Part shown: positions 7,073 to 59,214 of the stretch, piece after piece
Position numbering within the stretch: the stretch's first letter is position 1
Layout of the letters: each line of letters starts with the position of its first letter
NCBI GenBank assembly: GCA_028289585.1
Contig: JANQPI010000020.1
Location: 96,039-160,038, forward strand
Direction of reading: 5' to 3'
Source of the DNA: Candidatus Zixiibacteriota bacterium
Lineage (GTDB): Bacteria > Zixibacteria > MSB-5A5 > GN15 > FEB-12
Length of the DNA: 64,000 bases
Program-made: the position numbers and the translations under genes
The notes under the pieces: model-generated
The model's database searches: none
The model's input: the letters and a program-made list of their open reading frames with translations, nothing else
Told to the model about the DNA's origin: nothing

Positions 7073-8067
7073 TGGTATCGAATCAACGGACGCTCACACC
7101 GGAAGTACTTGCCTCCGGTGTCCGCGCAGGCGATCGCACGCTGCTGGGCCGGGCAATTACGCTGATTGAATCGAACGCGCCGCACCATCAGGCGGATGCC
7201 CAGTCCCTGCTCAAGCTGTTGCTTCCTGATACCGGAAACTCGATCCGACTCGGCATCACCGGTGTGCCCGGGGCTGGTAAATCGACCCTCATTGAAGCGC
7301 TCGGTCAATATGTCATCGACAAGGGACACCGGGTCGCGGTGCTCGCCGTCGATCCGTCGTCATCCTTAACGCGAGGATCAATTCTCGGCGACAAAACACG
7401 CATGCAAACGCTGTCGACAAATGACAACGCGTTCATTCGACCGTCGCCGTCCGGAGGTACACTCGGTGGCGTTGCCCGTAAAACCCGCGAGTCGATGCTG
7501 CTCTTTGAGGCAGCGGGCTATGATGTGATTATTGTCGAGACAATTGGTGTCGGGCAGAGCGAGATTACCGTCCGGTCATTGGTTGATTTCTTCCTGCTCA
7601 TTCAACTCGCCGGCGCTGGGGATGAACTACAGGGAATCAAACGTGGTGTCATGGAGTTGGCCGATTGCATCGCGGTGAACAAAGCCGACGGCGACAATGA
7701 GCAGCGTGCGAAAACCGCGGCGGCCGACCTCGAACGGGCGGTGCACTACCTGCAACCGGCGACCGAGGGGTGGACAACCAAAGTGATGACTGTCTCAGCC
7801 CTGGCTGGTGTCAATATCGAGATGGCATGGTCGACGGTCGAAGAGTTCGTCGCAATTGCCAAGACCAATGGGGCGTTTGAGACGCGGCGACGGTCTCAAC
7901 AGACAGAGTGGCTGCACGCGATGATCCGCGAACGGCTGGCCGAGCGTTTCTACTCTGATCCGAGAGTCGCTGCCCACCTCAACGAGATCGAACACGATGT
8001 CGCCAATGGACAACTGCCCGTCACAGAAGCAGCCATGAAGCTGCTGGGCTACACCGAGACGGACTAA
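7072..8067 (+). CDS. meaB: methylmalonyl-CoA mutase-associated G-protein chaperone (MeaB/ArgK family)
   Basis: Walker A GVPGAGKST, switch regions, NKAD motif; GTG start overlapping mutB stop by 1 nt (translational coupling). Confidence 0.9.
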   Translation: MVSNQRTLTPEVLASGVRAGDRTLLGRAITLIESNAPHHQADAQSLLKLLLPDTGNSIRLGITGVPGAGKSTLIEALGQYVIDKGHRVAVLAVDPSSSLTRGSILGDKTRMQTLSTNDNAFIRPSPSGGTLGGVARKTRESMLLFEAAGYDVIIVETIGVGQSEITVRSLVDFFLLIQLAGAGDELQGIKRGVMELADCIAVNKADGDNEQRAKTAAADLERAVHYLQPATEGWTTKVMTVSALAGVNIEMAWSTVEEFVAIAKTNGAFETRRRSQQTEWLHAMIRERLAERFYSDPRVAAHLNEIEHDVANGQLPVTEAAMKLLGYTETD

Positions 8068-9098: not shown

Positions 9099-9106
9099 AA
9101 AACGTT

Positions 9107-10240
9107 CTAGCCCGCCGTTACCGCCGGGACTCCCTCCTGTTGTAGTGTCGTATAGACGTCGGCCACAATGTTCAGGGCCTCATTGGTTTCTTCCACGGTT
9201 CCCGTGTTGATTCGCACAGCTTCCGGTAAACCGAATGGTTTGACATGACGGAGAATCAATCCTCGGTCAAGACAGCCCATAGTGAACGCATAAGCGAACG
9301 CTTCGGACTCCAACACCAGGAGAATGAAATTCGCCGCACTCGGCACCTGGCGCATCCCGAGCTCGTCGAAGCGCTGGCGCATGATATCAAGCATCCGGTT
9401 GTTCAGTTCAACCGTGCGACTGACAAAATCGTGATCGTCGAGTGCGGCAATCGCTGCTACCTGAGCCGGTAATGACGGTTCAAACGGCAGTTTGACCTTG
9501 TACATTTCCCGAATGATTTGCGCATCGGCAATCGCGTAGCCAACCCGCAGCCCGGCCAGACCGTAATCTTTCGACAGCGTCCGCGTGACAATGAGATTGT
9601 CGTAGTTGAAATCCAGACCATTCGGATAGTCATCGAGATGAACCGAGTAGTTGTAGTACGCCTCATCGAGAACGACATAGACGTCCGACGGTACTTGTTC
9701 CATGAACGCGGCTAGGTCAGCTGTCCGGACATACGTTCCCGTCGGATTGTTGGCGTTTGCGATATACACGAGCCGAGTCTGTGGTGTAATCGCTTCCGCA
9801 ATTCTACTCAGATCGTACCCGTAGTCGGTCAGCGGAACGGTCACGAGCTTTCGGCCGTGCTTTCGCACATTGACATACATGCCAATGAACGTTCCCTCGG
9901 CGGTAACGACCGAATCATCCGGACCGACCAACGCCTTGACCATGTATGAGAGCAGTGCATCGGTACCAGCACCGCAGATAATCTGATCAGCCGGGCGTCC
10001 ATGAACGGTCGACAGCTTCTGAATCAGATCATGAGCGGCCGGATCGACATAGCGCCAGACTCCGTCGAGCGCATCACGTGCAGCAGCAATCGCCGCTGGT
10101 GAGGCGCCGAGAGGATTCTCATTCGACGCCAACTTGATGATGCGCGTCAGCCCCTTCTCGCGAGCCAACTCCTCGACCGGCTTGCCGGCAATATACGGAC
10201 GCAACGCCTGGATATGCTCGGGGATGCGGAATTCGGTCAT
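9107..10240 (-). CDS. class I/II PLP-dependent aminotransferase (HisC/aromatic aminotransferase family), probable tyrosine aminotransferase
   Basis: 377 aa; PLP-lysine region ...TLSKDYGLAGLRVGY...; operon context with hmgA/hppD. Confidence 0.85.
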   Translation of the reverse strand: MTEFRIPEHIQALRPYIAGKPVEELAREKGLTRIIKLASNENPLGASPAAIAAARDALDGVWRYVDPAAHDLIQKLSTVHGRPADQIICGAGTDALLSYMVKALVGPDDSVVTAEGTFIGMYVNVRKHGRKLVTVPLTDYGYDLSRIAEAITPQTRLVYIANANNPTGTYVRTADLAAFMEQVPSDVYVVLDEAYYNYSVHLDDYPNGLDFNYDNLIVTRTLSKDYGLAGLRVGYAIADAQIIREMYKVKLPFEPSLPAQVAAIAALDDHDFVSRTVELNNRMLDIMRQRFDELGMRQVPSAANFILLVLESEAFAYAFTMGCLDRGLILRHVKPFGLPEAVRINTGTVEETNEALNIVADVYTTLQQEGVPAVTAG

Positions 10241-10301
10241 TGCAATCGTACCCTAACTCTATCCACCGCAACACATACCGGCCCCGCCGGTTCCACCGAC
10301 C

Positions 10302-11468
10302 CTACTCGAGCCATGAGTGAGCGTAATCCCGATCGAGCGTCTTCTGGGCGTTGGTTGTCGGCAAAAGCGGCTGGTACGTATCAATCATGATCGCGTACTC
10401 CTCGGTCTTCTCCTTGCCGACCGAATCTTCGGTCTTGCCCGGTTGCGGACCGTGGGGCATCCCTCCCGGATGCAACGTTATCGATCCGTTCTTCACACCC
10501 TTACGCGACATGAAGTCACCGTCGACGTAGTACAGTACCTCATCCGAATCGATGTTCGAGTGGAAATACGGTGCCGGAATTGCGCCGGGATAGAAATCGT
10601 ACAGACGCGGGACGAAGTTGCAGAGTATGAACTGACCCGTTTTGAAACAGAGATGTACCGGCGGCGGGAGATGAATCCGACCGACTTTCGGATGGTAGCT
10701 CTTGATGTTAAACGCAAACGGATAGAGGAAGCCATCCCAGCCAACGACACCGAACGGATGATGTGGCATGATATGTTCGAAGAAACGCTCACCCGCCTTG
10801 AGAATGACGACAAAGTCACCAGCCTCATCCGACGGTTCCAGATACTCCGGCGCCTTGAAATCGCGCTCGGCATACGGCGCGTCCTCAGTCATCTGACCGT
10901 ATTCATTACGGTAGTTGCGGGGAATTTCGTAGGCGGTCGATGATTCGCAGATCATCAGTTTGTTGTTCGCAGTGTAGTCGTCGAACTTGATCTGATACGT
11001 CACCGCTCGTGGCACGATAATCTGGTCGCCCGGCTCGAACCGAATCTTGCCGAACTCCGAAAGCATCTCCCCCTCGCCGTGGTGGATGAAAACGTACTCC
11101 GCACCGTAGGCGTTGCGGAAGAATTCGTCGGTGTCCTTGTTCACGTGTGCGGTGTAGATCTTGCAGTGATCGTTGTAGAGGAAGAGATTCCGCGACCGAA
11201 TGAAATCCCCCGGCGTCTGCAGGTCATCGGTGAAGAAATGATGATATAACACCGGTGCTTCCGGCCAGGAGACATCCTGAGTCATTTCCGGAAGGTGCCG
11301 CACGGATTTGACCGCGGTTGGCAAGTTGTAGTGATACTTGTTCGAATAGACACCCGAGAAACCCTTCGACGAAAACAACTCCTCGCGATAGAGCGACTTG
11401 CCGTCTTTCTTGAAGAACGTTGTGTGTTTGACGCGGGGAATATCCCCGACACTATGGTAAAATGGCAT
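10302..11468 (-). CDS. hmgA: homogentisate 1,2-dioxygenase
   Basis: 388 aa, typical HGD length and sequence pattern (cupin fold); follows hppD. Confidence 0.9.
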   Translation of the reverse strand: MPFYHSVGDIPRVKHTTFFKKDGKSLYREELFSSKGFSGVYSNKYHYNLPTAVKSVRHLPEMTQDVSWPEAPVLYHHFFTDDLQTPGDFIRSRNLFLYNDHCKIYTAHVNKDTDEFFRNAYGAEYVFIHHGEGEMLSEFGKIRFEPGDQIIVPRAVTYQIKFDDYTANNKLMICESSTAYEIPRNYRNEYGQMTEDAPYAERDFKAPEYLEPSDEAGDFVVILKAGERFFEHIMPHHPFGVVGWDGFLYPFAFNIKSYHPKVGRIHLPPPVHLCFKTGQFILCNFVPRLYDFYPGAIPAPYFHSNIDSDEVLYYVDGDFMSRKGVKNGSITLHPGGMPHGPQPGKTEDSVGKEKTEEYAIMIDTYQPLLPTTNAQKTLDRDYAHSWLE

Positions 11469-11547
11469 CGTTGCCTCGCATACTCAGTTGTGAATTCACT
11501 CTCACTTCCCGTCGGCTGGTAACCAAAAGGAGGGGACGACGTCCCCC

Positions 11548-12714
11548 CTAGCAGGGAGGCATGATTTCCGTTGGATCGCGATCGAGATTGCCGCGCAGTT
11601 TCTGATCGAGTTCGATCGATTCGAACAGCGACTGGAAGTTCCCCTTGCCGAAGCCCTGGGAGTTTCCGTGGCGCTGAATGAACTCGAAGAAGAACGTCGG
11701 CCGGTCACAAATCGGCTTGGTAAAGAGCTGTAACAGATAACCGTCGGACTCCTTGTCGCACAGAATGCCGAGCCGCTGGAGGTCATCGATGTTTTCGTTG
11801 ATCTGCAACTCGCCTGCCTGCTCACGTTCGCGCAACTTGTCGTAGTAGGTGTCCGGGATAGCGAGGAACTCACAGCCGTTCTTACGGAGGGCATCGATCG
11901 TTGCAATGATATCGGCGGTCTGGATCGCGATATGCTGTACGCCAGAACCATAGTATTGCTCGATGTATTCTTCGATCTGGGATTTTTTGAGTCCCTCGAA
12001 CGGTTCGTTGATCGGGTTACGGATTTTGGAGTCTTTGGTGCGAACGACCTTGGAGAGCAACGCCGAGTACTGGGTGCCGATGTCGCCTGCCTTAAAGTCG
12101 ACAAACGTCTCCATGTCCATCGCCTTGTTGAAATAGCTCGCCCAGAGATTCATCTCATTCTCGCGGACGTTGCCGACAATATGGTCGATTCCGAGAATCC
12201 CCGTTTCGTGATGGTCGAGTTGAATACTCTGCACCGGGGCGCAGAAGTCGGGACCAAATATCCCCTTGTAGTGGTCGCGGTTGACATACACGAGTTCGGT
12301 GTCGTCGTACAGACGAATCGCGGCCTCGGTGATGTGTCCCTTTTCCGGATGCCCATCTTCTTCGATCCGTTCCGGGCGGCGTACCATGACGGCACCGTTC
12401 TGTGTCGCGTACGTGAATGCGGCGTCGACATCGTCGACCTCAACCGACCAGCGCTTGACACCGTCGCCATGACGTTGAATCCAGCCGAGCACATCGTAGC
12501 AGTGCGGCTGCAACGCGCCGGTGACGAGCAGTTTGAAATTGTTCTTCTGCAGGTAGTAGCTGCACTTGTCGCGCACTCCCGTTTCGGCGCCGCGGTAGCC
12601 GACAATCTCCATGCCGAGCGCTTTGGCGAACCAGTAGGCGGTCGTTTTCGCCGACCCGACATAGAACTCGACATAGTCATAGCCACGGATTCCCATGATT
12701 CCGCTATCCGACAT
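11548..12714 (-). CDS. hppD: 4-hydroxyphenylpyruvate dioxygenase
   Basis: 388 aa, two VOC/glyoxalase-like modules, conserved HPPD C-terminal region; RBS-like AGGAG upstream. Confidence 0.9.
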   Translation of the reverse strand: MSDSGIMGIRGYDYVEFYVGSAKTTAYWFAKALGMEIVGYRGAETGVRDKCSYYLQKNNFKLLVTGALQPHCYDVLGWIQRHGDGVKRWSVEVDDVDAAFTYATQNGAVMVRRPERIEEDGHPEKGHITEAAIRLYDDTELVYVNRDHYKGIFGPDFCAPVQSIQLDHHETGILGIDHIVGNVRENEMNLWASYFNKAMDMETFVDFKAGDIGTQYSALLSKVVRTKDSKIRNPINEPFEGLKKSQIEEYIEQYYGSGVQHIAIQTADIIATIDALRKNGCEFLAIPDTYYDKLREREQAGELQINENIDDLQRLGILCDKESDGYLLQLFTKPICDRPTFFFEFIQRHGNSQGFGKGNFQSLFESIELDQKLRGNLDRDPTEIMPPC

Positions 12715-13552: not shown

Positions 13553-14398
13553 ATGAGAACGTTGATTCGAGTAGTGCTGATCTTTATCGGGACGTTTATC
13601 GTCGTTGCCGGGTGGGGATGGTTCAATATCTGGCGCTCGCCGAAGTTTGCGTCCGATGCCCTGACCCTGACCGCCTGCCAAGAGAATCCGGCAATCCTGA
13701 GCATGGAACAGTACGGCGCCGTTGGTAGCCACGCTCGCCCGTATGTCGTGGAACGACCTGACCTGGTGCTGTTCGGCGCCGAGCATACGAAAGACCCCGA
13801 TGACCCCCAGATTGCCAGAATCGAATCGGCGTGGGCGCAACTCGACCCGACGGTAGCACTTGTCGAGGGTCGACTCGGCTTCCTGATTCCGTACGTCATG
13901 AATCCGGTACCGACATTCGGCGAGAGCGGCTATGTCGCCAAACTGGCCCGGAGCGACGGTGCGGCGATCTATTCCTGGGAGCTCCCCAAGTCGGAGTTGA
14001 TTCTTGAACTCGTTAAGGTATACCCGCCCGAGCAGGTCGCACTCAGTCAGGTTCTGAGTCCGTATTTCAGCAACTACCGGTTCGGCAAGCCGGACGATCC
14101 GGAAGCGTTCGTCGCGCAATTCCTCAACCGCGCACACTACCCCGGACTGGAGAACACGATCGGCTCAATAGATGATATCGACCAAATCTGGCAGCAGGAT
14201 TTCGCGGATGTCGCCGACTGGCGGGAAACGTCAGATCAATGGGGACTGCCTGGCTACCTAGGCGAAATCGCGGCGTCGGCCAACATGATCCGCAATCAGC
14301 ATTTGGCCTGTGTGATTGATGGGTTAGTGGCGAACGGCGAGCGAGTGTTTGTGATCGCCGGTTCCAGCCATGCCGTCTGCCTCGACCCGGCGCTGTGA
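13553..14398 (+). CDS. membrane-anchored hypothetical protein, possible TraB/GumN family
   Basis: N-terminal TM helix; LFGAEH..D near N-terminus and VIAGSSHAV near C-terminus resemble TraB/GumN signature motifs; weak. Confidence 0.4.
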   Translation: MRTLIRVVLIFIGTFIVVAGWGWFNIWRSPKFASDALTLTACQENPAILSMEQYGAVGSHARPYVVERPDLVLFGAEHTKDPDDPQIARIESAWAQLDPTVALVEGRLGFLIPYVMNPVPTFGESGYVAKLARSDGAAIYSWELPKSELILELVKVYPPEQVALSQVLSPYFSNYRFGKPDDPEAFVAQFLNRAHYPGLENTIGSIDDIDQIWQQDFADVADWRETSDQWGLPGYLGEIAASANMIRNQHLACVIDGLVANGERVFVIAGSSHAVCLDPAL

Positions 14399-14408
14399 TG
14401 CGACAACC

Positions 14409-14748
14409 CAAGTGACCTGGGTGCCCCACCTTTCAGGTGGGAATCTTTGCGGCAGCCGAAGGACGACGAGTCATCCCGGCCCCTCTGTCATCCCGGCCCC
14501 TCTGTCATCCCGGCCCCTCTGTCATCCCGGCGAAAGCCGGGATCCAGTCTTTGTCGGGTGGGGCAGGTGAGGACACCTGCCGCCCACAGGAGAAAGTGAC
14601 GAATCGCGCTGTTCCGAGATTGTCATAGTGGCGGAGACGCGGCATGGGTTGAGAGTAGCAGACAGCTTTTGCAAGTGGCAATCACATTGGGGGAGCCGAA
14701 TTTGAGAATCCCACCCTAAAGGGTGGGCCACCCCGGCCTGATGACCAC
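14409..14748. repeat. MITE-like palindromic repeat element, copy 1 (about 340 bp): terminal inverted repeats GTGCCCCACCTTTCAGGTGGGAATC / GAGAATCCCACCCTAAAGGGTGGGCCACC, three perfect 17-bp tandem units GTCATCCCGGCCCCTCT plus hairpins CCCGGCGAAAGCCGGG and GGCAGGTGAGGACACCTGCC
   Basis: Seen directly; second copy at 15507-15850. Confidence 0.7.
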
Positions 14749-14755
14749 AGAGGTG

Positions 14756-15361
14756 CTATCGCGATGAATCGGAGAGAATGGAATCTCTTAGCCAAGCTCG
14801 ATGTATGCTATCTGCAATTCGAATGCTATCCCTGATTCTCTTACGGTGCTGCTCAACTCCGAGGTATCGCACACTACCCCTGTAAAACCGAACAGAGTCT
14901 CCCTCGCATGCCCATGATACTTGAAACAGATCTCCCCCACAGTAATCAGTGGTCACAAGGAAGGAAACCTCCGCAGTGTCGTTAGCGTCTGGCGCAACCC
15001 GAATCGGTATCCTAACGTCCACGGAGCCTCGAGCCTCTACCTCAAATTCGACCAGAGAGTTCGAAGGCTGCGCCAAGTCATTACTGCCCATCGGTCCCAA
15101 CACACACGTCATTGGCCCATGGCAAACAGAGGTGAATGTGACTATTAGATCGAAGGACTGTCCAGCAAGGGGGCCGACACCGTGTTTAGATCGGAAAGCA
15201 GAGGGCCACAGAGCGTTGGCACGAGCGCTACCGCGTAACGTATCTCCACGCGTTTTGGCTTCCCAATCCTTTGTCGGCGGCTGTGAGCCGATGCCGACGA
15301 AGATAGTCACCAACACTACCAACAATCTCAAGAAGTCCGTAGCTACCGTCATAGTCCCCAT
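14756..15361 (-). CDS. hypothetical secreted/membrane protein; diverged third paralog of the N-terminal domain of the 1098-aa protease (shared EFEVE...DYCxG segment)
   Basis: 201-aa ORF in low-GC island; local similarity to ORFs 20049-21053 and 16756-20052 N-termini; preceded (on its own strand) by the 91-bp repeat. Confidence 0.4.
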   Translation of the reverse strand: MGTMTVATDFLRLLVVLVTIFVGIGSQPPTKDWEAKTRGDTLRGSARANALWPSAFRSKHGVGPLAGQSFDLIVTFTSVCHGPMTCVLGPMGSNDLAQPSNSLVEFEVEARGSVDVRIPIRVAPDANDTAEVSFLVTTDYCGGDLFQVSWACEGDSVRFYRGSVRYLGVEQHRKRIRDSIRIADSIHRAWLRDSILSDSSR

Positions 15362-15420
15362 GGATCCTGTAGATTTGATTCACGTCATCGTGCGCGTGTG
15401 TAAGAAACGACTGCACAGGG

Positions 15421-15511
15421 AATCCGTCCAATGCCGATTTCAGCTCCCCCGATTGAACCTACCATTTGTTCTTAATGTACTATATACTAGCCAATCGGGC
15501 GGCTGATCGCC
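15421..15511. repeat. 91-bp direct repeat copy A (AATCCGTCCAATGCCGATTTCAGCTCCCCCGATTGAACCTACCATTTGTTCTTAATGTACTATATACTAGCCAATCGGGCGGCTGATCGCC)
   Basis: About 95% identical to 21094-21184; AT-rich core TTAATGTACTATATACT could be a promoter for the downstream minus-strand gene. Confidence 0.75.
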
Positions 15512-15850
15512 TGGGTGCCCCACCTTTCAGGTGGGAATCTTTGCGGCAGCCGAAGGACGACGAGTCATCCCGGCATCCCTGTCATCCCGGTCCTTCTGTC
15601 ATCCCGGCGCCTCTGTCATCCCGGCGCAGGCCGGGATCCAGTCTTTGTCGCATGGGGCAGGTGAGGACACCTGCCGCCCACAGGAATACGCTAAAAAACT
15701 CTACTCCTTAACAGTCTCCTGATTGGTGAAGCTTACGGGGCAATATAACCCCTAAATCGAGGTTTTATCTGGACCAGTTTTTGGGCGAAAGGTCACCTTC
15801 GCTAGCCATCTGGTAATGGACGGGTGGCCCACCCTGGGCTTGATACTTAG
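15507..15850. repeat. MITE-like palindromic repeat element, copy 2 (degenerate 17-bp units GTCATCCCGGCATCCCT / GTCATCCCGGTCCTTCT / GTCATCCCGGCGCCTCT, same hairpins; degenerate right end near GGGTGGCCCACCC)
   Basis: Direct comparison with copy 1; right boundary approximate. Confidence 0.6.
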
Positions 15851-15883
15851 CCTGCCTCAATGCCAGAGAATAGCCCCGTTTAA

Positions 15884-16708
15884 CTACTGACAGGTGGGCA
15901 GTGGAGAAAACGTGATGAACAGATGGTCCTGCAGAGCAGTTAGATCCGACAACCCTACGATACCGTCGGGTGAACCGTCGCAGTTCGCTTCCGCCGGACA
16001 AATCAAGGGACTAAGAGAGATAAAAAGGTGATCGACCAACGCACTGAAGTCCGCTAAGGACACTATGTCGAGTGGGTCGCCATCAACATTGCCAACGTCC
16101 GCGACACAACAACTACCTTGATCTTGTACGTGTAGGGCACCTGCCCAGACCGGATACCAAAGCGTAGTCGGTGTCCCACCCGCTGCCGCATAAACAACAT
16201 TTGGGAAGAGAGCGTGGGATGTATCCATTACGAAGGTGTTTCCAGCCGTCCAATGCTCAACGGTAAAGTGGAATGTCACCAGCTCTTGAGACTGGGGAGC
16301 AGCGGTCAAACCCGGCAAACTAATTAGCTGACCGGCAAACATGCAATGCTTCAGACTGTTAGATGAATCGACGTTGTTATTGTACATCGATGTGAACAGA
16401 TAGAAATTGAATGCACTGTCAACTGCTACAGGAACAACGGAACTATCCAGTCTGACTCCATCCAGATTCCAAACAAACTGTGCAGCTGCCATCTTGAGAA
16501 ACGATGAGTCGAGCTTGTACATGAACGACACAGCGAAGCTGGAGTCACCAACACTCAGATTAAGTGGATCAGACAACCTGAGTTTCATCGAATCAGGAAC
16601 ACCCGGGTCTAGGATGTCAAAAGCCGGTGCACTCGGAGCCGACAACAACGCCGTGCAATACAAGACCAAAGCAAAGCAACGGACTCCCCGAAAAGAATTG
16701 CATTTCAT
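15884..16708 (-). CDS. secreted protein with signal peptide and C-terminal tandem dockerin-like (EF-hand-loop) module; probably co-transcribed with the upstream metalloprotease
   Basis: 274 aa; N-terminal hydrophobic signal; C-terminus ...CCVADVGNVDGDPLDIVSLADFSALVDHLFISLSPLICPAEANCDGSPDGIVGLSDLTALQDHLFITFSPLPTCQ; 47-bp gap to protease gene. Confidence 0.6.
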   Translation of the reverse strand: MKCNSFRGVRCFALVLYCTALLSAPSAPAFDILDPGVPDSMKLRLSDPLNLSVGDSSFAVSFMYKLDSSFLKMAAAQFVWNLDGVRLDSSVVPVAVDSAFNFYLFTSMYNNNVDSSNSLKHCMFAGQLISLPGLTAAPQSQELVTFHFTVEHWTAGNTFVMDTSHALFPNVVYAAAGGTPTTLWYPVWAGALHVQDQGSCCVADVGNVDGDPLDIVSLADFSALVDHLFISLSPLICPAEANCDGSPDGIVGLSDLTALQDHLFITFSPLPTCQ

Positions 16709-16755
16709 GGCATAACCTCCTCCTCTAAAATACTAATGACCAAACTCCATCGCAA

Positions 16756-19700
16756 TCACGGACAGATCTCCAATAGACTGAAGCTGATATAGAGATGATC
16801 AATTATCGCTAATACGTCAGCCTGAGAAACGCCCGGCTCACAACTCCCTCCGACAGTTCGAAGGTTAGCACTCTCAGGGCAATGAATCGCAATAAAGTCA
16901 ATAAATAGATGATTGATGTATATGCTCAAGTCAGATTGAGTGACGTCGTTGTCACCGAATCCATATATATCACCCGCAGTTCGATCTGAAAAACGGCACG
17001 GACCGGCCTTACAGGTCAAGTGGCCATTCTCGGAAGCAACGTCAAACTTGCCGAGATTTGTTGACAAGTTCCAATCCTCTAGGAACTCAGACATACTATC
17101 CGGCTGTGTGATAACTAAGAACTGAAGTATGTCGGTAAGCGAGTGTTGAAGTGTATCCTTGATACCATCCGGATTCGGAGTAAAGACCCCGGTCCAGTTG
17201 CCGCTTTCAAAAGGACTATAATTGTCATCCTCGCCTGCGTCATAGAGATCCCAAATCAAGCAGCCCGCTGAAGCCTCAAACAAGCAATGATCCGCACATC
17301 CGGATTGACCAGAGAAATCGACACCATTCTCTAGTCTGTATTGACGACCCGTCTCAAGGTCAAGAACCGCGGCAAACGTATACTCATAGTTCCAGTTGTA
17401 GCCAAGGGAACCCAAGCCTGTACCAAGGGTATCGCGTAGAGCGCCTTGGAAGAACTCGGCGAATCCCTCGGACGAAGCCTTAACCGGGTCCGAATTCGAA
17501 GAGTCGCACCAAGAATGAGAGGAGATTAGACTTGTCCGGTCGTCAAAGAAACGGTAGTGGTCGTGAAAAGCGTGGGCATACTCGTGCAAAATAGCCTCTG
17601 GGTCCCGCAAATCGTATAGGTAGTCAACTTTCCAACTACTTATGCTAATGTGACCGTCGAGGTAGCCAGTCGTGTCAAAAGAACTTGTCGACATTGTTAC
17701 CCGAGGCGGTGGATCGATTCCGACTCGTTCGGTGAGTTGTTCAGCAGCGAAGCGTAGCACATCGAGAGCATAAAACACATCGGAATTGATCGAATCCGGA
17801 GGCAGGATGAAGTCGACAGTGTAGTTCCCTCCAGGTAAGTCCATTGACAGTACTGAATCTCGAAAGTACCCGTCGGAAAAATTGACCGATGTAACGGAGC
17901 AAACAGGCGTCACCGCAACGAGACGGATATAAGGATCGATCGCACCACTCCCGATTTCTCCATCTTCATTAGTGAATTCGAAAGTGAATTTACCCAGGGA
18001 ATCAGTAACCGTCGTGGCTATTAGGTCATCAGGATTTCCAAAAATAAAATCCTCGTCCCAGGCTTCCACGCGAGCTCCAATGATAGGTCGATCACCTTCG
18101 TTGTTTGGTCGTCTTCGATAATAGGTGGCAGTCCCACGTATAACGACCTTTCGGTTGTAGAACTGGTACTCTCGAGTGGCAGTATTATTCGTCTGGTCAG
18201 GCTCGCCAAAGCCACCAAGACTGTTCAGAATTACAACGATATTGCCAAGAAAACTCGCCTGTTCAATCGGTTTAAATTCGACATCTTGGAAAAAGAGTAG
18301 CTGATTAGTTTGCGGTTGAATCGATTCAACAAAAAGATATGTCGATTGGGATACCTGATTATTGACTTCTATCGAAAATGCTCCGGATTCACCCAGCCCG
18401 TCATTCCTTACGCCGATGCAAACGCGATTCGGCTCACCCATGTACAACGTGTCATCAACCAAGCAACCGAGATCTTGAGAGACCGAAAAGACGTCCGGTA
18501 GGAAGGGATCCTGGTAGAACTCTAGGTCAAAGTTTGGCTTCCCGCGAACTTCCAAGTCGTCAATATAGACTCCTAATTTGTCATTTCCATCGTCATAGCC
18601 CGAACGGAAAGTAAAAATTAGAAAGACAGAATCCGGTAGAGTATCTATAGGCGTAGAGCCTTGACGAAACGTCTTGAGCGGAAATGAAATCGACTGCCAA
18701 CCGTTTGACGTTCCTCCGTAGGTGAGGAATCCGTTGACTAGGCTATTAGTGTTAAGGGAATCTCGGGAGTGAGCATATTGTACTACAAAAAAATTGTTTG
18801 AGAAGACCTGTTCAAAATCAAACCAGCACTGGAAAATGCAGTTTGCACTACGGAAGCCAGATAAATCAATTCCGATAGTATCGGCAAGAGTCGCGATCAT
18901 CCCTGGCGGGTAGGCTGGCGCGGGGCTATCCGCCGTGTCACTTGCACCTGCACACCAAATCGACGGTACAAAAGCACTCCCATGATAAAAGCTCGCGCCC
19001 CAGTGGGCCACGCCGTTGCCGGGATCGGAGTCGTAGCTTTGCCATCTATCCGATAAACCAAAATTGAATTCATCCTTGAAAATGATCGAGTCACTCGTGT
19101 TCACTTCTCTTCGCGGAGAAGAATCGCTAGTCGTGTCCTGCTGCTCACCAGGGGCGGTGATTCGGGAGTTCACAAATTCAGCAAACCACATCAATAGCGA
19201 ATCAATCTGAGCCGCGGCTGTTGATGTCGCTGTCTTTGAAACATACGCCCAGTAGTGATCGGGTGCGTACGGTACGAGTGAGTCGACTCGATCTCGCACA
19301 GCAGCAACCACCTCAGGTGTGAAAATAGCCATTCTCCGCCGAGCGGTCTCGGGAGTTTGATCGGAGTGTGGTGTGTTCACTGAGGGGTCGCGGATAGGCT
19401 TGAGGTCGTTTGCTAATCTGACCGAGTCAATCATCTCGCTGACTCTGCGATTGTGCTCGAGAATCTCCTCAAGCGGAATACGACCTTGCATAGTATCGGA
19501 GGCCCAGTATTGGCTCGCCATTTCACGCAATCTCGCGTTCAGCGACCATCTCTCCAGAACTTCGACAACATTCTGGCCATTATTGAACGCATCATGTGGT
19601 TTATTGCTGACTGTCACTGAATCGACATAGTCTGCAATGTAAATATGAAAGAAATTGAATAATCCGTTACAGTAGTCGACACTGACAGGAAATGCGGTGT

Positions 19701-20052
19701 AGCGCTCAGGCGGATACTGCAATTCGACCTCAAACTCAATCTGCCGCTGCCCATTGAGATCCAACTCCAACTCATTGGGAACAGGACGTGGCATTTCTTG
19801 AGGGCTAGAAACCCCTATTCTCACAGTCGGACAGTTAAGGTACTCATCCCGGGGCATCGCCGTTACACGCACCCTAACAGGCTGTCCGCGGATAACCCCG
19901 CCGACAACTTCGAGACGAGTTTCGATTGAGACATTCGGCAGCTTGCGGGGCGTAGCATCGCTTTGTGATACGAGAATTATTAGCGAGAAAAGAACGAAAA
20001 TCGTAAGTCGCTGTGGAGCAATCATCACACACCCCCAGTTTGGATGACTCAT
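16756..20052 (-). CDS. large secreted zinc metalloprotease (HExxH: LHEYAHAFH) with N-terminal paralogous domain, central beta-rich domains and C-terminal dockerin-like module
   Basis: 1098 aa; signal-like N-terminus; HEYAH motif; C-terminal ...DNDVTQSDLSIYINHLFIDF...GVSQADVLAIIDHLYISFSLLEICP; low-GC composition. Confidence 0.7.
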   Translation of the reverse strand: MSHPNWGCVMIAPQRLTIFVLFSLIILVSQSDATPRKLPNVSIETRLEVVGGVIRGQPVRVRVTAMPRDEYLNCPTVRIGVSSPQEMPRPVPNELELDLNGQRQIEFEVELQYPPERYTAFPVSVDYCNGLFNFFHIYIADYVDSVTVSNKPHDAFNNGQNVVEVLERWSLNARLREMASQYWASDTMQGRIPLEEILEHNRRVSEMIDSVRLANDLKPIRDPSVNTPHSDQTPETARRRMAIFTPEVVAAVRDRVDSLVPYAPDHYWAYVSKTATSTAAAQIDSLLMWFAEFVNSRITAPGEQQDTTSDSSPRREVNTSDSIIFKDEFNFGLSDRWQSYDSDPGNGVAHWGASFYHGSAFVPSIWCAGASDTADSPAPAYPPGMIATLADTIGIDLSGFRSANCIFQCWFDFEQVFSNNFFVVQYAHSRDSLNTNSLVNGFLTYGGTSNGWQSISFPLKTFRQGSTPIDTLPDSVFLIFTFRSGYDDGNDKLGVYIDDLEVRGKPNFDLEFYQDPFLPDVFSVSQDLGCLVDDTLYMGEPNRVCIGVRNDGLGESGAFSIEVNNQVSQSTYLFVESIQPQTNQLLFFQDVEFKPIEQASFLGNIVVILNSLGGFGEPDQTNNTATREYQFYNRKVVIRGTATYYRRRPNNEGDRPIIGARVEAWDEDFIFGNPDDLIATTVTDSLGKFTFEFTNEDGEIGSGAIDPYIRLVAVTPVCSVTSVNFSDGYFRDSVLSMDLPGGNYTVDFILPPDSINSDVFYALDVLRFAAEQLTERVGIDPPPRVTMSTSSFDTTGYLDGHISISSWKVDYLYDLRDPEAILHEYAHAFHDHYRFFDDRTSLISSHSWCDSSNSDPVKASSEGFAEFFQGALRDTLGTGLGSLGYNWNYEYTFAAVLDLETGRQYRLENGVDFSGQSGCADHCLFEASAGCLIWDLYDAGEDDNYSPFESGNWTGVFTPNPDGIKDTLQHSLTDILQFLVITQPDSMSEFLEDWNLSTNLGKFDVASENGHLTCKAGPCRFSDRTAGDIYGFGDNDVTQSDLSIYINHLFIDFIAIHCPESANLRTVGGSCEPGVSQADVLAIIDHLYISFSLLEICP

Positions 20053-20104
20053 ACTACCAATGACAGTATAGAGTATGACGTACCGCGCACGCAGTCACCA
20101 AACT
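20032..20104. repeat. 73-bp segment (5' UTR plus first 7 codons of the protease gene) near-identical to 21023-21094
   Basis: Exact match except a 1-bp indel; tandem duplication signature. Confidence 0.85.
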
Positions 20105-21053
20105 CGATTTCAGGAGTCTCCGGTTTCTTTCGATTTGATTCAACGTCTTTCTTCTGAAGATGCCGCGTCCTCACGTACTCTTCGAACCACTCCAAGAGCT
20201 CGTCGACTCGCTGTTTGGCCGATGCAGTCGCCGTCTTCGAAACATATGCCCAGTAATGATGTGGCGCATACGAAACCAATGAATCCACTCTAGATCGTAC
20301 TGCATCAACTTCCTCGGGATTTAGCAGGAACATTGCCTGTCTAACCGAACTCTGGCTGCTGTCGGACAGGCTAGTCTCCAAAGTCGTTGCGAAAATCGGG
20401 CCAAGCCCCATCAACGTTCGGATCGAGTCGATCTGTCTACGAACCTCATCGTTATGTTGGCCAATATCGTCTATCCGAAAGCTTGGACCGAGAGTATCTG
20501 GAGACAAGAAGCGGCTCTCTAACTGCTTCAGTTGCTGTTCGAGGCGCCGCCTTTCTAACGTCGCAGGAACACTCGTCCCGCTTCTAAAACCGATGTCGGG
20601 TACATCCGTGACAACTACAGAATCAACGTAGTCGACGATAAAAAACTCATAGAAATTGAGATATCGATCACAGAATTTGAAGCTGACCGAGTACGCCAAG
20701 TATAGCTCGGGGAGAAAGTTGACTTCGAACTCTACATCTATCCTCCCCGATGACTGCCGATCTACCTGCTGCTCGGTCGGACTCGGTTGGGGCATATTCC
20801 GAGCCACGTGCAAATCGACTAAGACCGTTTCGCAGGTGTCGAACTCGGGCCGAGGAATCGCGGTAACGCGTAGGCTAATTGGATGCCCTCGAACTATTTC
20901 GCCAACAACTTCTACATTGGCATCGATCGATACGTCGGGTAGAGCGCGGGACCGGGCATCGCTCTTTGAAACAGCGGTGAGGGTCAGTAAAAGAACAAAT
21001 GCCAAGACTCGGCATGAGTAGATCATCACACACCCCCAGTTTGGATGACTCAT
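20049..21053 (-). CDS. paralog of the N-terminal domain of the 1098-aa metalloprotease (stand-alone, about 334 aa), stop overlaps protease start (ATGA)
   Basis: Shares MSHPNWGCVMI start and similar following region (...LP[ND]VSI...VEVVG..RG.P...RVTA.PR... EFEV...); start chosen at the conserved MSHPNW methionine. Confidence 0.55.
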   Translation of the reverse strand: MSHPNWGCVMIYSCRVLAFVLLLTLTAVSKSDARSRALPDVSIDANVEVVGEIVRGHPISLRVTAIPRPEFDTCETVLVDLHVARNMPQPSPTEQQVDRQSSGRIDVEFEVNFLPELYLAYSVSFKFCDRYLNFYEFFIVDYVDSVVVTDVPDIGFRSGTSVPATLERRRLEQQLKQLESRFLSPDTLGPSFRIDDIGQHNDEVRRQIDSIRTLMGLGPIFATTLETSLSDSSQSSVRQAMFLLNPEEVDAVRSRVDSLVSYAPHHYWAYVSKTATASAKQRVDELLEWFEEYVRTRHLQKKDVESNRKKPETPEIEFGDCVRGTSYSILSLVV

Positions 21054-21094
21054 ACTACCAATGACAGTATAGAGTATGACGTACCGCGCACGCA
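21023..21094. repeat. second copy of the 73-bp 5' UTR/start duplication
   Basis: Direct sequence comparison. Confidence 0.85.
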
Positions 21095-21184
21095 ATCCGT
21101 CCAAAGCCGATTTCAGCTCCCTCGATTGAACCTACCATTTGCTCTTAATGTACTATATACTAATCAATCGGGCGGCTGATCGCC
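21094..21184. repeat. 91-bp direct repeat copy B; a further degenerate copy lies at about 20098-20130 inside the 3' end of the paralog ORF
   Basis: About 95% identity with 15421-15511. Confidence 0.75.
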
Positions 21185-21223
21185 CACCAACAATGCCGAC
21201 ACCGCTAGCCACAAGGGGTTACG

Positions 21224-23011
21224 ATGCCGACAGTTGCCTCTACCGAAACGCCGGTTGACTTTACCAGCAACCCGCAGGTCCGCGCCCTCCCCAACTACCT
21301 TCGACAGTTCATTGTCGAACAGAACTACGACGCCTACCACCCGGTCGACCACGCCGTCTGGCGTTACATCATGCGTCAGAACTGCCATTTCCTGCGCGAG
21401 AACGCCCACAAAGTCTATTTCAAGGGGCTGCTCGAAACGGGGATCGACCTCGACAAGATTCCGTCGATCGCCGAAATGAATGACATCCTGGGCAAGATCG
21501 GCTGGGGCGCGGTGGCCGTCGACGGGTTCATCCCCCCGGCGGCGTTCATGGAGTACCAGGCGTACAAAGTGCTCGTCATCGCCGCCGACATGCGGCAACT
21601 GCATCATATCGACTACACCCCCGCGCCGGATATTGTCCACGAGGCGGCCGGGCATGCGCCGATCATTGTCGACGAGGAATACTCGAACTACCTGCAACGC
21701 TTCGGCGAAATCGGTGCCCTGGCGATGTACTCGAAGCGAGATTACGAGCTCTACGAGGCGATTCGCAAGCTGTCGATTCTCAAAGAAACGCCTGGCGCCG
21801 ATGAAAACGAAATCGACGCCACAGAAAAGCAGGTCAAATGGCTACAGGAAAATCTCGGGGAACCGTCGGAAATCGCCCGCCTGCAACGTCTGCACTGGTG
21901 GACAGTCGAATACGGCCTGATCGGCACGCTCGACAAGGCCAAGATCTACGGTGCGGGATTGCTCTCATCGATCGGCGAGTCGGTCAAATGCCTCGAACCG
22001 AATGTCAAGAAGTTGCCGTACACGCTCGCTGCGGCTGACTACGCCTTCGATATCACCGAGATGCAACCGCAACTTTTTGTCACCCCCGACTTCACACATC
22101 TGCACAACGTTCTCGAAGAATTCGCCGACACAATGGCACTCCGTCGCGGCGGCGCCTACGGCGTCAAGATGGCGATCGACACCGAGGCAACCAACACCGC
22201 CGAATACTCAAGCGGTTTACAGGTGTCAGGAATTTTCAGCGATCTAAAGACCGATGCCAATGGCGACGTGATCTTTATCAAGACATCGGGTGCGACCACC
22301 CTCGCCCATCAGCGGACGTGTCTCGACGGTCACGGTCCCGAGTATCATGCCGACGGCTTCTCCTCGCCGGTTGGTAAGTTTAAGAACGTCCCGCGCGATC
22401 CGGGTGATCTCGACGATTCCGCGCTCGAAATGATGGGCCTGCGTTTCGGTCAGCCGGGCAAACTCGAATTCGAGTCCGGCATCACGGTAGAGGGAACGCT
22501 CGAACGGGCCGTCCGCAAAGACGACAAGCTCCTCTTACTCGTCTGGTCGAACTGTACGGTCACCTACGGCGGCGAAACACTGTTCCGTCCGGAATGGGGA
22601 ACCTACGACATGGCGGTCGGTGCGACAATTACGTCGGTCTTCTGCGGTGCTGCTGACAAAGATGCTCACCACGAAATCGCTCCGGTCTCGCGCACGCGAA
22701 CGATCAAAGTCCACTACACCGATAAAGAGCGCGCTCGCCAGAAGCTCTACGGTGAGGTGCGGAAGATACGCGACGGCCAGGGGTCGACCGAGGCCCTTCC
22801 GGATATCTGGACCAAGGTCACCACCGAGCACCCCGACGACTGGTTGCTGTCGACCGAGATTCTAGAACTCGTCGAGCATCTCAAAATCTATCCAGATCTC
22901 AACAAACGGATTCGCGCCTATCTCGCCACCAAGGCAGAGGAGGATGCGATCACGCGCAAGTTGATTGAGGACGGTCTCAGTCTCTCGTTCCGCATCACTG
23001 CCCGCGACTAG
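21224..23011 (+). CDS. phhA: long-form aromatic amino acid hydroxylase (phenylalanine 4-monooxygenase) with a roughly 300-aa C-terminal extension of unknown function
   Basis: Iron-binding/pterin region PDIVHEAAGHAPIIVDEEYSNYLQRFGEIG matches the PAH/TH/TPH catalytic signature; total 595 aa. Confidence 0.8.
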   Translation: MPTVASTETPVDFTSNPQVRALPNYLRQFIVEQNYDAYHPVDHAVWRYIMRQNCHFLRENAHKVYFKGLLETGIDLDKIPSIAEMNDILGKIGWGAVAVDGFIPPAAFMEYQAYKVLVIAADMRQLHHIDYTPAPDIVHEAAGHAPIIVDEEYSNYLQRFGEIGALAMYSKRDYELYEAIRKLSILKETPGADENEIDATEKQVKWLQENLGEPSEIARLQRLHWWTVEYGLIGTLDKAKIYGAGLLSSIGESVKCLEPNVKKLPYTLAAADYAFDITEMQPQLFVTPDFTHLHNVLEEFADTMALRRGGAYGVKMAIDTEATNTAEYSSGLQVSGIFSDLKTDANGDVIFIKTSGATTLAHQRTCLDGHGPEYHADGFSSPVGKFKNVPRDPGDLDDSALEMMGLRFGQPGKLEFESGITVEGTLERAVRKDDKLLLLVWSNCTVTYGGETLFRPEWGTYDMAVGATITSVFCGAADKDAHHEIAPVSRTRTIKVHYTDKERARQKLYGEVRKIRDGQGSTEALPDIWTKVTTEHPDDWLLSTEILELVEHLKIYPDLNKRIRAYLATKAEEDAITRKLIEDGLSLSFRITARD

Positions 23012-25101: not shown

Positions 25102-28100
25102 GTGACCAAGCTTTTCACGCTGCTCTGCGGCTTTTGTCTGCTACTCTCTCCGGCGATGGCCGAGACAGTCTTTGACGAACTCACGGCCGACCAAGAAATC
25201 GCGGCCTTCCAGGTTGAAGCGGTTTACGAGACCGATGCCGGAGCTGGTATGGGTGCACGATTCCGTCACGTCCCAACCGGCTTCGTACTCGACCTCCTGC
25301 GTATCCAGTCGGTTCCGCAGGCGTTCATGTGGGTAAACTCACCGCCGTTCTCTGACGGTGGCGAGCCCCACACGCTCGAGCATCTGCTTCTCGGTAAGGG
25401 GAATCGCGGCCGCTACGTTGCGTCACTTGAAGACATGGCGCTCGGATCGTCGTCGGCCTACACCGAACAACTACGCACCTGCTATCACTTCCACACTAAC
25501 GCGGGAACCGAAACGTTCTTCCTGCTTTTCCGCGAGAAACTTGATGCGATGCTGAACCCGACTTTCACCGATGAAGAGATTCGTCGGGAAGTGATGAATT
25601 ATGGCATCAAGATCGATCCGACGACCGGTGATCGCACCCTGGAGGAAAAGGGGACGGTCTATAACGAAATGGTCAGCTCGTTTGAGCGCCCGTGGGGCAA
25701 CCTGTGGTACGAAATGCGTCAGAATATCTTCGGCGCCGATCACGAATACTCGCGGTCGGCCGGTGGCACGCCTGAAGCGCTGCGCCAACTGCCGCCGGAA
25801 GCGATCCGACGCTTTCACGACTCGACCCACCAGCTCTGGAACATGGGGGCTGTGGCAGCCCTTCCTAACGAGATTGCTGTCGACGACGCGCTGCAGTTGT
25901 TTTCGGATATTCTCGCCGCAGTGGATCCGGATGCCGGTCCCGGTGAGGATGCCGCCACCGCCTATGATCGCCTTCCTCCGTTCCGCTCAGCCGAGCCGGG
26001 AGCGATTCTGCAGACCGCCTTCAAGTCAGCGAACCCGCAGGAGCCCGGCTTGATGTTCCTTGCCTGGCCGCCCGTGAATCGACTTGAGAACAACGATTGG
26101 ATGATGGCCGATCTTCTCATGGAACTCGTGGCCACCGGCCAGACGTCGAACCTCCACAAGAAGCTGATCGACAGTCGCGAGCGCGTCACCGACATCGGTG
26201 CCACCTCGATTTTTGGATGGGTCGACGACGGTCCGGGTCAGTCGTTTATGATCGGTATCTCCGATGTCCGGCCGTCGGCTACGTCACCTGCAATGATCGA
26301 TTCCATACGCGGCTTGATTGTCAACGAATTCGCCCGCATTGCCTCGTGGTCCGATGATGATCCAGACCTCGCAGCGTTCAATGAGCGCGCGATGACCCGT
26401 CTGATAGCCAACGAACGAGCCAATCGGATGTTTCTCAATCAGCCTCCGCGCTGGGGGTACCGAGGGACCGGATCGGCCTGGCTCGACCTGCTACAACGAT
26501 TGCATCGGACCGGAGAGTTTCGCCGATCACTCACGCGTAACGCGGAGGTGGCGTTCGCTCGTGCCCAATTGGAAACCGAGGGTAACATCTGGAAAGCGTA
26601 CATCGACGGTTGGCAGCTCGGACAGCAGCTCCCCTACGCCGGTGCGACACAACCCGACCCGGGAATCATTCAGGCGACGCAGGACGCCACGGCGGCGCGA
26701 CTTGGTGCCAAGTTGGCCACCCTGCGGGAGACCTACAACGCCACAACCGATGACGAGGCAATAGCGGCGTTTGCTGCCGACTACGACGCTCAGACAGCGA
26801 TCCTCGATTCGATCGCCGCGGAAAACACCGTACCAAGCTTCATCGACAACCCACCCCTTACGATCGATCCAACGCTCGCCTATCGCATCGAGTCGCTCCC
26901 CGGCGGCGGCGATCTGGTCGTGTCGACCTTCGACAACATCTCCAGCGCGACGATCGGATTAGCAATGGACCTCTCGGTGACGCCGGAATCCGAACTACTC
27001 TATGTTGCCGCGCTACCGACACTGCTTCGTCAAACCGGAGTGATCCGCGACGATCAACCGATCCCGTTTGACCAGTTCGATGAATCGGTACGCCGGGAGA
27101 TTCGCTCTCTCGATGCCTACGTCACGACCAATCACCGGAGTGAGCGTGCCGAACTTGTGGTCCGCGCCTCCGGTTCGGAGATCGCAGAGAACCGAACAGC
27201 AATCGGATGGCTTGAGACGATGCTGCTGGCCCCGGACCTTCGGATTGAAAACCTCCCTCGCATCATCGATGCAATCGATCGCACGCTGTCGGGACATCGG
27301 ACTCGGATGCAGGGCTCCGAAGAATCGTGGGTGACCGAGCCTGCCAACGCGTACTGGCGGCAGGATAATCCCCTGCTGCTCGCGACATCGTCGTTCATGA
27401 CCGAAGCCCATCTGTTGCAGCGATTCCGCTGGCAGTTGCGAGCGGCGCCGGACCAGGCGACTGGCGACGCAACATCGATGTTCATGCAGCGCCTGAATGA
27501 TCTGGGCACTCTCGGTGGCGATCGCGCCACGGCCTCGGCGTTAGTCAAATCGATTGCGGACAATGCTGCCGACCAATCGTCGCACTCCCTCGCCGTTGAT
27601 TACCTTGCGCTCCCCGAAGCCGCCCGAGAGCTCGTTCATGAGGCAGCCGTTGATCTCGTCGCGAATCTTCCGGGGATTCCGGATGAGTCGTTCGCCGACG
27701 ACTGGGCACTGCTGGTTACGCAGATGATGGCTGACCTGCGGACCTCACCCGCAACTGCACTCGCCAACGCTGACAACGTGCTCAACCGACTCCGCAATCA
27801 GGCGGCGGTACGTGGGTTCGCGATCACAAACGCGACCGAACAATCGGCCTTGATCGAACGCGTCAGTTCGATCGTTGCGAAGCTCGATGACACACCGATC
27901 GAGCGCGTGAAGTACACACGCCGAGCGCGCGTCGACGACCGTATTCAGCAACGTTTGGATGATCGGACCGAGCCGCTGCTGGTCGGCTTGGTGAACAACA
28001 ACACGAGTTCGGGCGTGCACATTCACACCGCCGACTGTGCGTCATTTTTCGACAGTGATACGTCGCTCCTGCTCAATTTCCTCGCTGCTCGCCTTTACGG

Positions 28101-59204: not shown

Positions 59205-59214
59205 AATCTATCCC

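Follow-up and report, generated by a model that had tools for sequence, protein, structure and literature searches.

A low-GC islet of predicted secreted-protein genes, probably horizontally acquired, beside phhA in a Candidatus Zixiibacteriota bacterium

How did a block of low-GC DNA carrying only genes for predicted secreted proteins come to lie between two genes of native composition? The question is raised by nucleotides 14416-21184 of a 64-kb window, the whole stretch of DNA that was analysed (64,000 nucleotides of contig JANQPI010000020.1, assigned to a Candidatus Zixiibacteriota bacterium). This segment, here called the islet, holds four open reading frames (ORFs), genes A to D, together with three classes of repeats, D1, D2 and D3. 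All four ORFs are on the minus strand, and each starts with an N-terminal hydrophobic leader that resembles a signal peptide as judged by eye. On balance we consider it probable, with a good deal of doubt remaining, that the segment is a small horizontally acquired islet, most likely from a lower-GC (about 48-50 %) relative of the Zixibacteria type. An initial annotation, made from the sequence, had proposed a horizontally acquired or rapidly evolving locus. This proposal was supported, and of its two parts the horizontal one is favoured, since members of the gene C family have the composition of their own hosts in the two other genomes examined and the islet has a lower GC content than the non-coding DNA of its host.

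The base composition of the islet deviates in every measure taken. The GC content of 14400-21190 is 50.5 % versus 57.1 % over the remainder of the window, where segments of the same size had a mean of 57.1 ± 0.9 % and a lowest value of 55.1 %. A 1-kb profile reached its minima of 46.7-49.9 % between 16 and 20.5 kb, while the flanks have 57-60 % GC. The initial annotation had seen a drop to about 45-50 % against flanks of about 62 %; the drop is real, the flank value was too high. The first 1.1 kb of the islet (unit 1, 14416-15511) has 55 % GC because it includes D1 sequences of 65-67 % GC, thus the truly low-GC block extends from about 15.7 to 21.1 kb. After removal of the D1 copies, the islet has 49.7 % GC versus 55.7 % in the intergenic DNA of the host. 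The GC content at third codon positions (GC3) is 0.50-0.55 in the four islet ORFs versus 0.60-0.82 in the confidently coding ORFs elsewhere in the window. First positions (GC1) are lowered as well, thus the amino-acid composition also differs. The relative synonymous codon usage (RSCU) of genes B, C and D correlated with that of the host gene set at r = 0.18-0.31, all other window genes of at least 800 nt at 0.56-0.96; gene A was too short to be scored. Measured by tetranucleotides, the islet is as far as 0.32-0.39 from the remainder of the window versus 0.14-0.24 for other parts, and the dinucleotide signature delta* is 83 versus 25.6 ± 5.9 (maximum 39.5) in windows of the same size. The quantitative check for uniform GC content, codon usage and tetranucleotides that accompanied the initial annotation thus revealed a strongly non-uniform region, with the islet deviating by about 7-10 standard deviations in GC and delta*. 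Atypical composition, codon usage and oligonucleotide signature, the compositional marks of a genomic island, are all present. Normal codon usage was found for the window genes 25102-28680, 32782-34443 and 48971-52051, which are secreted or ORFan-like. Apart from the islet, a much weaker compositional bump is located at 58000-61000 (tetranucleotide distance 0.20-0.24, GC 54-55 %) over genes for cytochrome-oxidase-like membrane proteins. GC3 is normal there (0.65-0.77), thus this bump is probably a matter of amino-acid composition, not foreign DNA.

The features of the islet are, in the order of the plus strand:

14416-14591, unstranded: D1a, 176 nt, 66.5 % GC, left end of the islet, 18 nt past the stop codon of the left flanking gene
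14521-14547 and 15615-15641, within the two D1 copies: 27-nt hairpin GTCATCCCGGCG-nnn-GCCGGGATCCAG with 23 fixed bases
14710-14734, minus strand: GC-rich hairpin CCCACCC TAAA GGGTGGG, 22 nt downstream of gene A, no U-tract
14756-15361, minus strand: gene A, 201 aa (amino acids), hydrophobic N-terminal leader, sole cargo of unit 1
15421-15511, unstranded: D2a, 91-nt block in the leader/promoter region upstream of gene A
15510-15685, unstranded: D1b, 176 nt, 94 % identical to D1a, at the 3' end of unit 2
15822-15834, minus strand: GC-rich palindrome GGGTGGCCCACCC downstream of gene B, no U-tract
15884-16708, minus strand: gene B, 274 aa, predicted to be secreted, with a C-terminal dockerin-like double repeat
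16756-20052, minus strand: gene C, 1098 aa (1089 aa if translation starts at Met10)
20021-20093, unstranded: D3a, 73 nt, 5' leader and first codons of gene C
20049-21053, minus strand: gene D, 334 aa, the frame being open back to a TTG at 21104; paralog of gene C residues 1-300
21022-21094, unstranded: D3b, 73 nt, 5' leader and first codons of gene D
21094-21184, unstranded: D2b, 91 nt, closing the islet on the right, 40 nt short of the phhA start codon

These features form two head-to-tail minus-strand units, each built as a D2 leader block, one or more ORFs, a GC-rich hairpin and D1. Read along the minus strand, unit 2 comprises D2b-D3b, D, D3a, C, B, a hairpin and D1b, and unit 1 comprises D2a, A, a hairpin and D1a. 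Consequently, the islet in plus-strand orientation begins with D1 and finishes with D2, with an intact D2|D1 junction in the middle at 15510. The three repeat classes of the initial annotation were all recovered at their places: D1 (176 nt, 94 % identity), D2 (94.5 % over 91 nt, or 91 % over 102 nt) and D3 (100 % over 73 nt, or 99 % when extended to 76 nt). The end of gene D, 15 codons plus the stop, is also encoded within D3a. No further copies of D1, D2 or D3 occur within the window. The last two nucleotides of D2a, CC, are the first two of D1b, and the homology between D2a and D2b ends exactly at the start of D1b, beyond which the sequence is unrelated to the region upstream of phhA. The repeated entity is therefore the unit [D1 ... 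D2], not an insertion into a duplicated promoter. This pattern of ends fits a tandem integration of two related circles, or an exact doubling of a bounded insert with subsequent loss and divergence.

The hairpin downstream of gene A has a 14-nt match to the hairpin downstream of gene B; both may act as terminators, and the first of them was not listed by the terminator scan. The scan for sigma-70 promoters and terminators detected none in D2 or D3, its yield being below that from shuffled sequence, and a sigma-54 motif of the -24/-12 type was not seen there by eye. A scan of 12-24 kb against Rfam (E ≤ 1) yielded two chance-level matches and nothing at D1, D2 or D3. RNA folding z-scores were -1.8 and -2.1 for the two strands of D1 and -0.4 for D2 plus D3, so that structured RNA is unsupported. 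As a separate observation, genes for sigma-54-dependent activators with TPR_MalT domains adjoin gene C homologs on two unrelated contigs (L229, 15559-17712; L231, 6596-8740), a neighbourhood that hints at a sigma-54 control of the gene C family.

The position of the islet was compared with related genomes. The genes that frame it are:

11548-12714, minus strand: hppD, the first gene of an hppD-hmgA-aminotransferase-FAH block
13553-14398, plus strand: left flanking gene, 281-302 aa, native composition
21224-23011, plus strand: phhA, right flanking gene, long-form aromatic amino acid hydroxylase, phhA-like, native composition

The identity of phhA, already recognised in the initial annotation, was confirmed by NF010657 (E 4e-227). 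The label "TraB-like" given to the left flanking gene has no backing: neither Pfam, NCBIfam nor PHROG gave a match, even at permissive thresholds. In a Zixibacteria locus (L002), FAH-aminotransferase-hmgA-hppD is adjacent to phhA, with a gap of 400 bp between hppD and phhA. Here this gap is 8.5 kb and contains a DUF456 gene, the 281-aa gene and the islet. Among 80 related phhA loci, none had islet-like genes, the "TraB-like" gene or the DUF456 gene near phhA. The synteny comparison proposed with the initial annotation thus found the segment absent in the nearest relatives; these are distant, at 55-72 % amino-acid identity, and the absence from the syntenic position therefore lends weak support to an island. 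The host is about equally distant from the Zixibacteria and the Ignavibacteriales loci. Eleven window proteins that were looked up (eight housekeeping, three from the islet) were all singletons at 90 % identity among about 15 billion proteins and were on record from one NCBI contig and one sequencing run only. By these searches the host appears to represent a lineage without a sequenced close relative. As an observation on the host itself, genes for phenylalanine/tyrosine degradation and pterin metabolism (FAH, aminotransferase, hmgA, hppD, phhA, a PTPS fusion, acetoacetyl-CoA synthetase and a flavin reductase-like gene) are spread over 40 kb, at 8064-12714, 21224-23011, 34556-36488 and 44724-47639. 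They are contiguous in Zixibacteria and Ignavibacteriales loci (L002, L015 and L054).

What do the islet genes encode? Pfam and NCBIfam gave essentially nothing for the four proteins, and PHROG gave no match. In the gene C product, a signal-like leader is followed by an N-terminal beta-sandwich with a helical/alpha-beta region and then by a CARDB-homologous region and a transthyretin-like sandwich; a predicted zinc metalloprotease domain of the thermolysin fold comes next, and a dockerin-like module ends the chain. The CARDB-type assignment is a homology to the CARDB-containing part of relatives, the transthyretin-like one a prediction. The protease domain has the motif HEYAH. Its residues H823, E824 and H827 together with H846 and E862 are invariant in all 14 family members aligned. 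An AlphaFold model of residues 630-1098, based on an alignment of 28 sequences, reached a pLDDT of 77.7 and a pTM of 0.80 and shows the two-lobe fold of thermolysin, in agreement with Foldseek, at an identity to thermolysin of 7-8 %. Peptidase models (Pfam Peptidase_M4 and Peptidase_M4_C, NCBIfam) and solved proteases gave no sequence or profile match. According to the model, gene C would encode a secreted multidomain protein with a predicted catalytic domain of the thermolysin fold (gluzincin type). It does not belong to family M4 at the sequence level and is probably a member of an undescribed family within clan MA(E).

A word-index search of 5.8 billion proteins returned gene C itself as the sole match, and a profile version of it was unproductive. 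An exhaustive HMMER search of 1.84 billion cluster representatives detected 74 relatives, the best with 27-31 % identity, covering residues of about 256-1098. Four of those looked up carry an organism name, all of candidate division Zixibacteria; a fifth is labelled only "bacterium". Several relatives possess CARDB, transthyretin-like, Dockerin_1 or FlgD_ig domains. Two family members allowed a comparison of composition with their own surroundings: GC3 is 0.68 in P0006 against mostly 0.62-0.75 in the genes around it (locus of 57 % GC), and 0.57 in P0005 against 0.47-0.64 in its neighbours (genome of 50 % GC). Both match the composition of their own hosts, thus a low GC3 is not a property of the family. 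No relatives of gene C were found in viral contigs. A phage origin of the islet was rejected on this result, on the lack of PHROG matches and on the absence of the D1 3' hairpin from viral contigs. The gene C family, uncharacterised so far, comprises large proteins predicted to be secreted and to have a thermolysin fold, seen mainly in metagenome-assembled genomes of Zixibacteria, which are missed by current family libraries.

The C-terminal dockerin-like module connects the islet to the host. About two dozen of the HMMER matches covered only the last 80 or so residues of C, and the matched stretch was located at the extreme C-terminus of these unrelated proteins, a terminal-only placement that would be expected of an anchoring or sorting module. 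One native gene of the window also ends in it:

32782-34443, plus strand: gene for a lysyl-oxidase/CARDB protein of native composition, ending in the same dockerin-like module as B and C

Its C-terminal 75 aa are the closest copy of the B module, with 53 % amino-acid identity, but the identity at third codon positions is 39 % and GC3 is 0.57 in the B module versus 0.69 in the native one. The values indicate a shared ancestry of the module type; a recent exchange of the module between B and the lysyl-oxidase gene was rejected on the third-position identity. The duplicated segments at the C-termini have the fold of a dockerin. Pfam Dockerin_1 did not match the modules of B and C even at E ≤ 10. 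One homolog of C, P0010, matches Dockerin_1 at its own C-terminus, its HMMER match to C ending at residue 980 with the modules unaligned. The shared module suggests that the host may have its own surface display system of the cohesin-dockerin type; we found no literature linking Zixibacteria and dockerin. In the same window, the gene at 25102-28680 (plus strand) encodes a protein of 1192 aa with a signal-like leader, without Pfam match and with native codon usage. It has the motif HTLEH, an inverted HxxEH zinc motif of the pitrilysin/M16 type, near its N-terminus.

The other three genes stand in a varying relation to gene C. Gene B starts 47 nt after gene C and has the C-terminal module in common with it. 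In the Zixibacteria locus L227, a B homolog (32 % identity over 219 aa, E 3e-24) is situated directly downstream of the C homolog P0005, thus C-B is a conserved gene pair. The stop codon of gene D overlaps the first ATG of gene C (ATGA). Gene D arose by a partial tandem duplication with a period of 1001 bp, which includes the leader and the first 300 or so codons of C. The C and D proteins are 44 % identical over 297 aa, with a nonsynonymous divergence (dN) of 0.52 and saturation at synonymous sites (dS). The model of D consists of a signal helix, an Ig/FnIII-like sandwich, two helices and a small alpha/beta domain. Against this divergence of the bodies, the identical D3 leader on the two paralogs suggests either that gene conversion took place recently or that the leader is under unusual constraint. 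Neither an RNA structure nor a consensus promoter turned up that would account for the latter. Gene A compared to C and D with E values of 0.07 and 0.29, and hhalign against the N-terminal sandwich of the family was weak (E 0.0036, probability 9 %). It is a probable gene and possibly a highly diverged copy of the N-terminal beta-sandwich module. Neither gene A nor gene D, whether in its form of 334 or of 351 aa, has been recorded as a called gene. The initial annotation had described a paralog family together with an HExxH protease, and the description applies to the pair C/D, to the module shared by B and C and to the motif in C, while the link to gene A is weak.

D1, termed "MITE-like" (miniature inverted-repeat transposable element) in the initial annotation, could not be confirmed as such an element. 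It contains three hairpins and 3.6 tandem copies of a 17-nt unit, GTCATCCCGGCCCCTCT, the last of which makes the hairpin GTCATCCCGGCGAAAGCCGGGATCCAG, i.e., GTCATCCCGGCG-AAA-GCCGGGATCCAG. The 27-nt hairpin was present in at least 120 public metagenome contigs (loci L083-L226) and in 24 viral contigs of IMG/VR. Among the matches listed, the contigs had a median GC content of 64 % and flanks that were not conserved, and an inverted hairpin partner was located within 150 nt in 38 of 157 occurrences. Some public occurrences have upstream half-site repeats as D1 does. The hairpin is not in Rfam, and no paper on it was found. Beyond the 27-nt core, D1 had no match in metagenome or viral contigs; a two-anchor pattern of D1 matched no metagenome contig and its 3' hairpin no viral contig. 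The terminal inverted repeats of a MITE were not convincing, the ends sharing only CCTG/CAGG and loosely similar hairpins. Neither copy is flanked by a target duplication; the only possible one, the 2-nt CC, belongs to the junctions of whole units. Dispersed copies are lacking in the window and the public collections, and the two D1 copies of the 64 kb are both inside the islet. From its sequence, D1 looks like a local composite around a hairpin resembling repetitive extragenic palindromic (REP) elements.

In the reading that we favour, the islet entered the intergenic space upstream of phhA and would have helped to split an ancestral cluster for phenylalanine/tyrosine catabolism. The anomalous DNA occupies a single intergenic gap completely, with its own repeat blocks as boundaries. 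The duplication of C and D would predate the transfer, because synonymous sites are saturated while the composition of the islet is unameliorated, and the array would have arrived as a block. Unit 2 may be seen as an operon D-C-B, with B as a small co-inherited partner and D as an old partial duplicate of the N-terminal module of C. D3 (100 %) and D1 and D2 (94-95 %) may have been kept alike by recent gene conversion or by the mode in which the units were joined. The predicted products would be exported, their dockerin-like tails would dock on a cell-surface scaffold, and the docked proteins may confer an accessory extracellular proteolytic or binding capacity. As it has no recombinase, the islet would not be able to move by itself today. 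A number of points weigh against this reading. Integrase, transposase, tRNA and phage genes are absent from the islet and the flanking genes examined; no tyrosine recombinase was detected among them, and the 64 kb hold no tRNA or tmRNA gene. At the three junctions (left end, internal, right end) the shared sequence amounts to the dinucleotide CC, so that there is no convincing attachment (att) site or target duplication; a local alignment of the two flanks scored 11, a value reached by 12 of 500 shuffles. No donor was identified, and the codon usage of the islet did not match that of the one 50 %-GC Zixibacteria locus tested (r = 0.35). Synteny could be compared with distant relatives only, whose gene neighbourhood is rearranged in any case. 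The lineage of the host may carry native members of the gene C family, since the dinucleotide signature of L229, a locus with the family, resembles that of the host (delta* 30.6). Secretion, docking and protease activity of the products are predictions.

A different explanation is a native fast-evolving locus in which a lineage-specific family of secreted proteins expanded in tandem without any transfer, its low GC content and flat codon usage resulting from weak expression, relaxed selection and AT-biased mutation. The dockerin-like tail of a native window gene, the occurrence of the family in a genome with a host-like signature, the lack of mobility genes and the saturation of C and D at synonymous sites, which indicates an old duplication, agree with it. 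So does the low identity of the family to known relatives (at most 31 %), in comparison with 55-72 % for the neighbouring housekeeping genes. We nevertheless regard a native origin as unlikely. Relaxed selection in this genome does not easily account for a GC content below that of the host non-coding DNA and for a shifted GC1, and the dinucleotide signature is displaced along with them, not just GC3. In two other genomes the family members resemble their hosts in composition, the other secreted or ORFan-like genes of the window have retained a normal codon usage, and the anomalous block ends precisely at repeats within a single intergenic gap. Repeats at every boundary of the low-GC material raise also the matter of an assembly artefact, in which lower-GC DNA of another member of the metagenome was spliced in via shared repeats. 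The Logan assembly of run SRR20820731 indeed splits the region exactly at D1, D2/D3b and D3a: contig ends lie 30 nt inside D1a, D1b and D3a, and a contig start lies within D3b, as would be expected of a k=31 graph at true repeats. Contig L082 ends 30 nt into D1b and 30 nt into D3a. Contig L001, however, connects phhA without a break to the copy-specific D2b and on to D3b, the leader and start of the islet genes, and contig L232 extends from the left flank 30 nt into D1a. The location of the islet is therefore sound, and at most the order of the units is ambiguous; alternative paths through the repeat graph would only swap this order and keep the units at the site. The same proteins are, moreover, recorded on an NCBI contig of 601,861 bp, and we consider an artefact very improbable.

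The architecture of the ends permits yet another interpretation. The two units could be non-autonomous site-specific cassettes, similar to integron cassettes or tandem integrative elements: two circles with different cargoes but a common D2|D1 attachment region would have been inserted one behind the other at a single chromosomal site, with the recombinase supplied from elsewhere. A D1 half at the left, an intact D2|D1 junction in the middle and a D2 half at the right are the architecture of a tandem integration, the ends agree at 94-95 % of positions although the cargoes have little or no relation to each other, the hairpin-rich D1 is placed downstream of the ORFs, and the ends of the units coincide with the compositional boundaries. 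We consider this quite improbable all the same: the 64 kb contain no recombinase, the shared core has only 2 nt, and neither the window nor metagenome or viral contigs hold further D1/D2 copies or other cassettes. An unequal crossing-over of the whole islet, followed by deletion and divergence, yields the same ends. Even less credence would be given to the more specific idea that D1 and D2 are the attachment-site arms of an undescribed class of small recombinase-less cassettes, with the GTCATCCCGGCG...GCCGGGATCCAG hairpin as the recognition element of a protein.

A horizontal acquisition, which we continue to prefer, would make this locus a clean and quantitatively supported example of a small islet in a lineage without a sequenced close relative. 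Mildly unusual are the units with both ends in common, the identical 73-nt leader on saturated paralogs and the protease family missing from the libraries. The use of the dockerin-like module by the host and by the presumed donor is a hint at surface display of the cohesin-dockerin type outside the Firmicutes.

Compared with known systems, parts of the islet resemble several of them. In the thermolysin-like proteases of MEROPS clan MA(E) (M4 with thermolysin and LasB, M36 with fungalysin), the HExxH motif and a downstream glutamate as third zinc ligand correspond to gene C as in family M4, but C lacks the FTP/PepSY propeptide and has at its N-terminus a family-specific module, a CARDB-type region and a transthyretin-like domain instead. 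From the type I dockerins of cellulosomal enzymes, the islet modules differ by degenerate or lengthened calcium-binding loops and by conserved cysteines (CC...C) that frame the module; some family members end in a domain of the FlgD_ig/type IX secretion system (T9SS) kind. The vsp/vlp surface-protein loci of Mycoplasma are multigene families with a conserved 5' cassette. Saturated paralog bodies behind a nearly identical 5' leader and start, in tandem genes for secreted or surface proteins, are reminiscent of them, but the copies in the islet are all direct, number only two or three, and have neither a site-specific recombinase nor inversion sites nor evidence of phase or antigenic switching. 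With REP elements, bacterial interspersed mosaic elements (BIME) and MITEs, D1 shares the short, non-coding, intergenic and hairpin-rich nature and the position downstream of genes, as well as a core hairpin that is very widespread and often present in inverted pairs. Unlike these, it occurs in two copies only, both within the islet, has no clear terminal inverted repeats, is unmatched elsewhere over its whole 176 nt, and no REP-associated tyrosine transposase (RAYT) or other transposase is in view. Integron cassettes would each end in an attC-type imperfect palindrome at the 3' side. D1 is located 3' of each unit and folds into hairpins, but each unit has also the conserved 5' block D2, and an R-box/L-box organisation was not identified; no IntI integrase was found among the islet and flanking genes scanned. 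The islet as a whole is comparable to genomic islands and islets. It deviates from them by its size of only 6.8 kb, its two tandem units with common ends and the lack of an integrase, a tRNA/tmRNA target and a demonstrable att or direct-repeat core. It shares with them the atypical GC content, codon usage and oligonucleotide signature, the discrete boundaries, the accessory genes for secreted or surface proteins, the interruption of a conserved gene cluster and the absence from the syntenic site in relatives. It is thus a familiar kind of thing, and the current understanding of such elements is not overturned by it.

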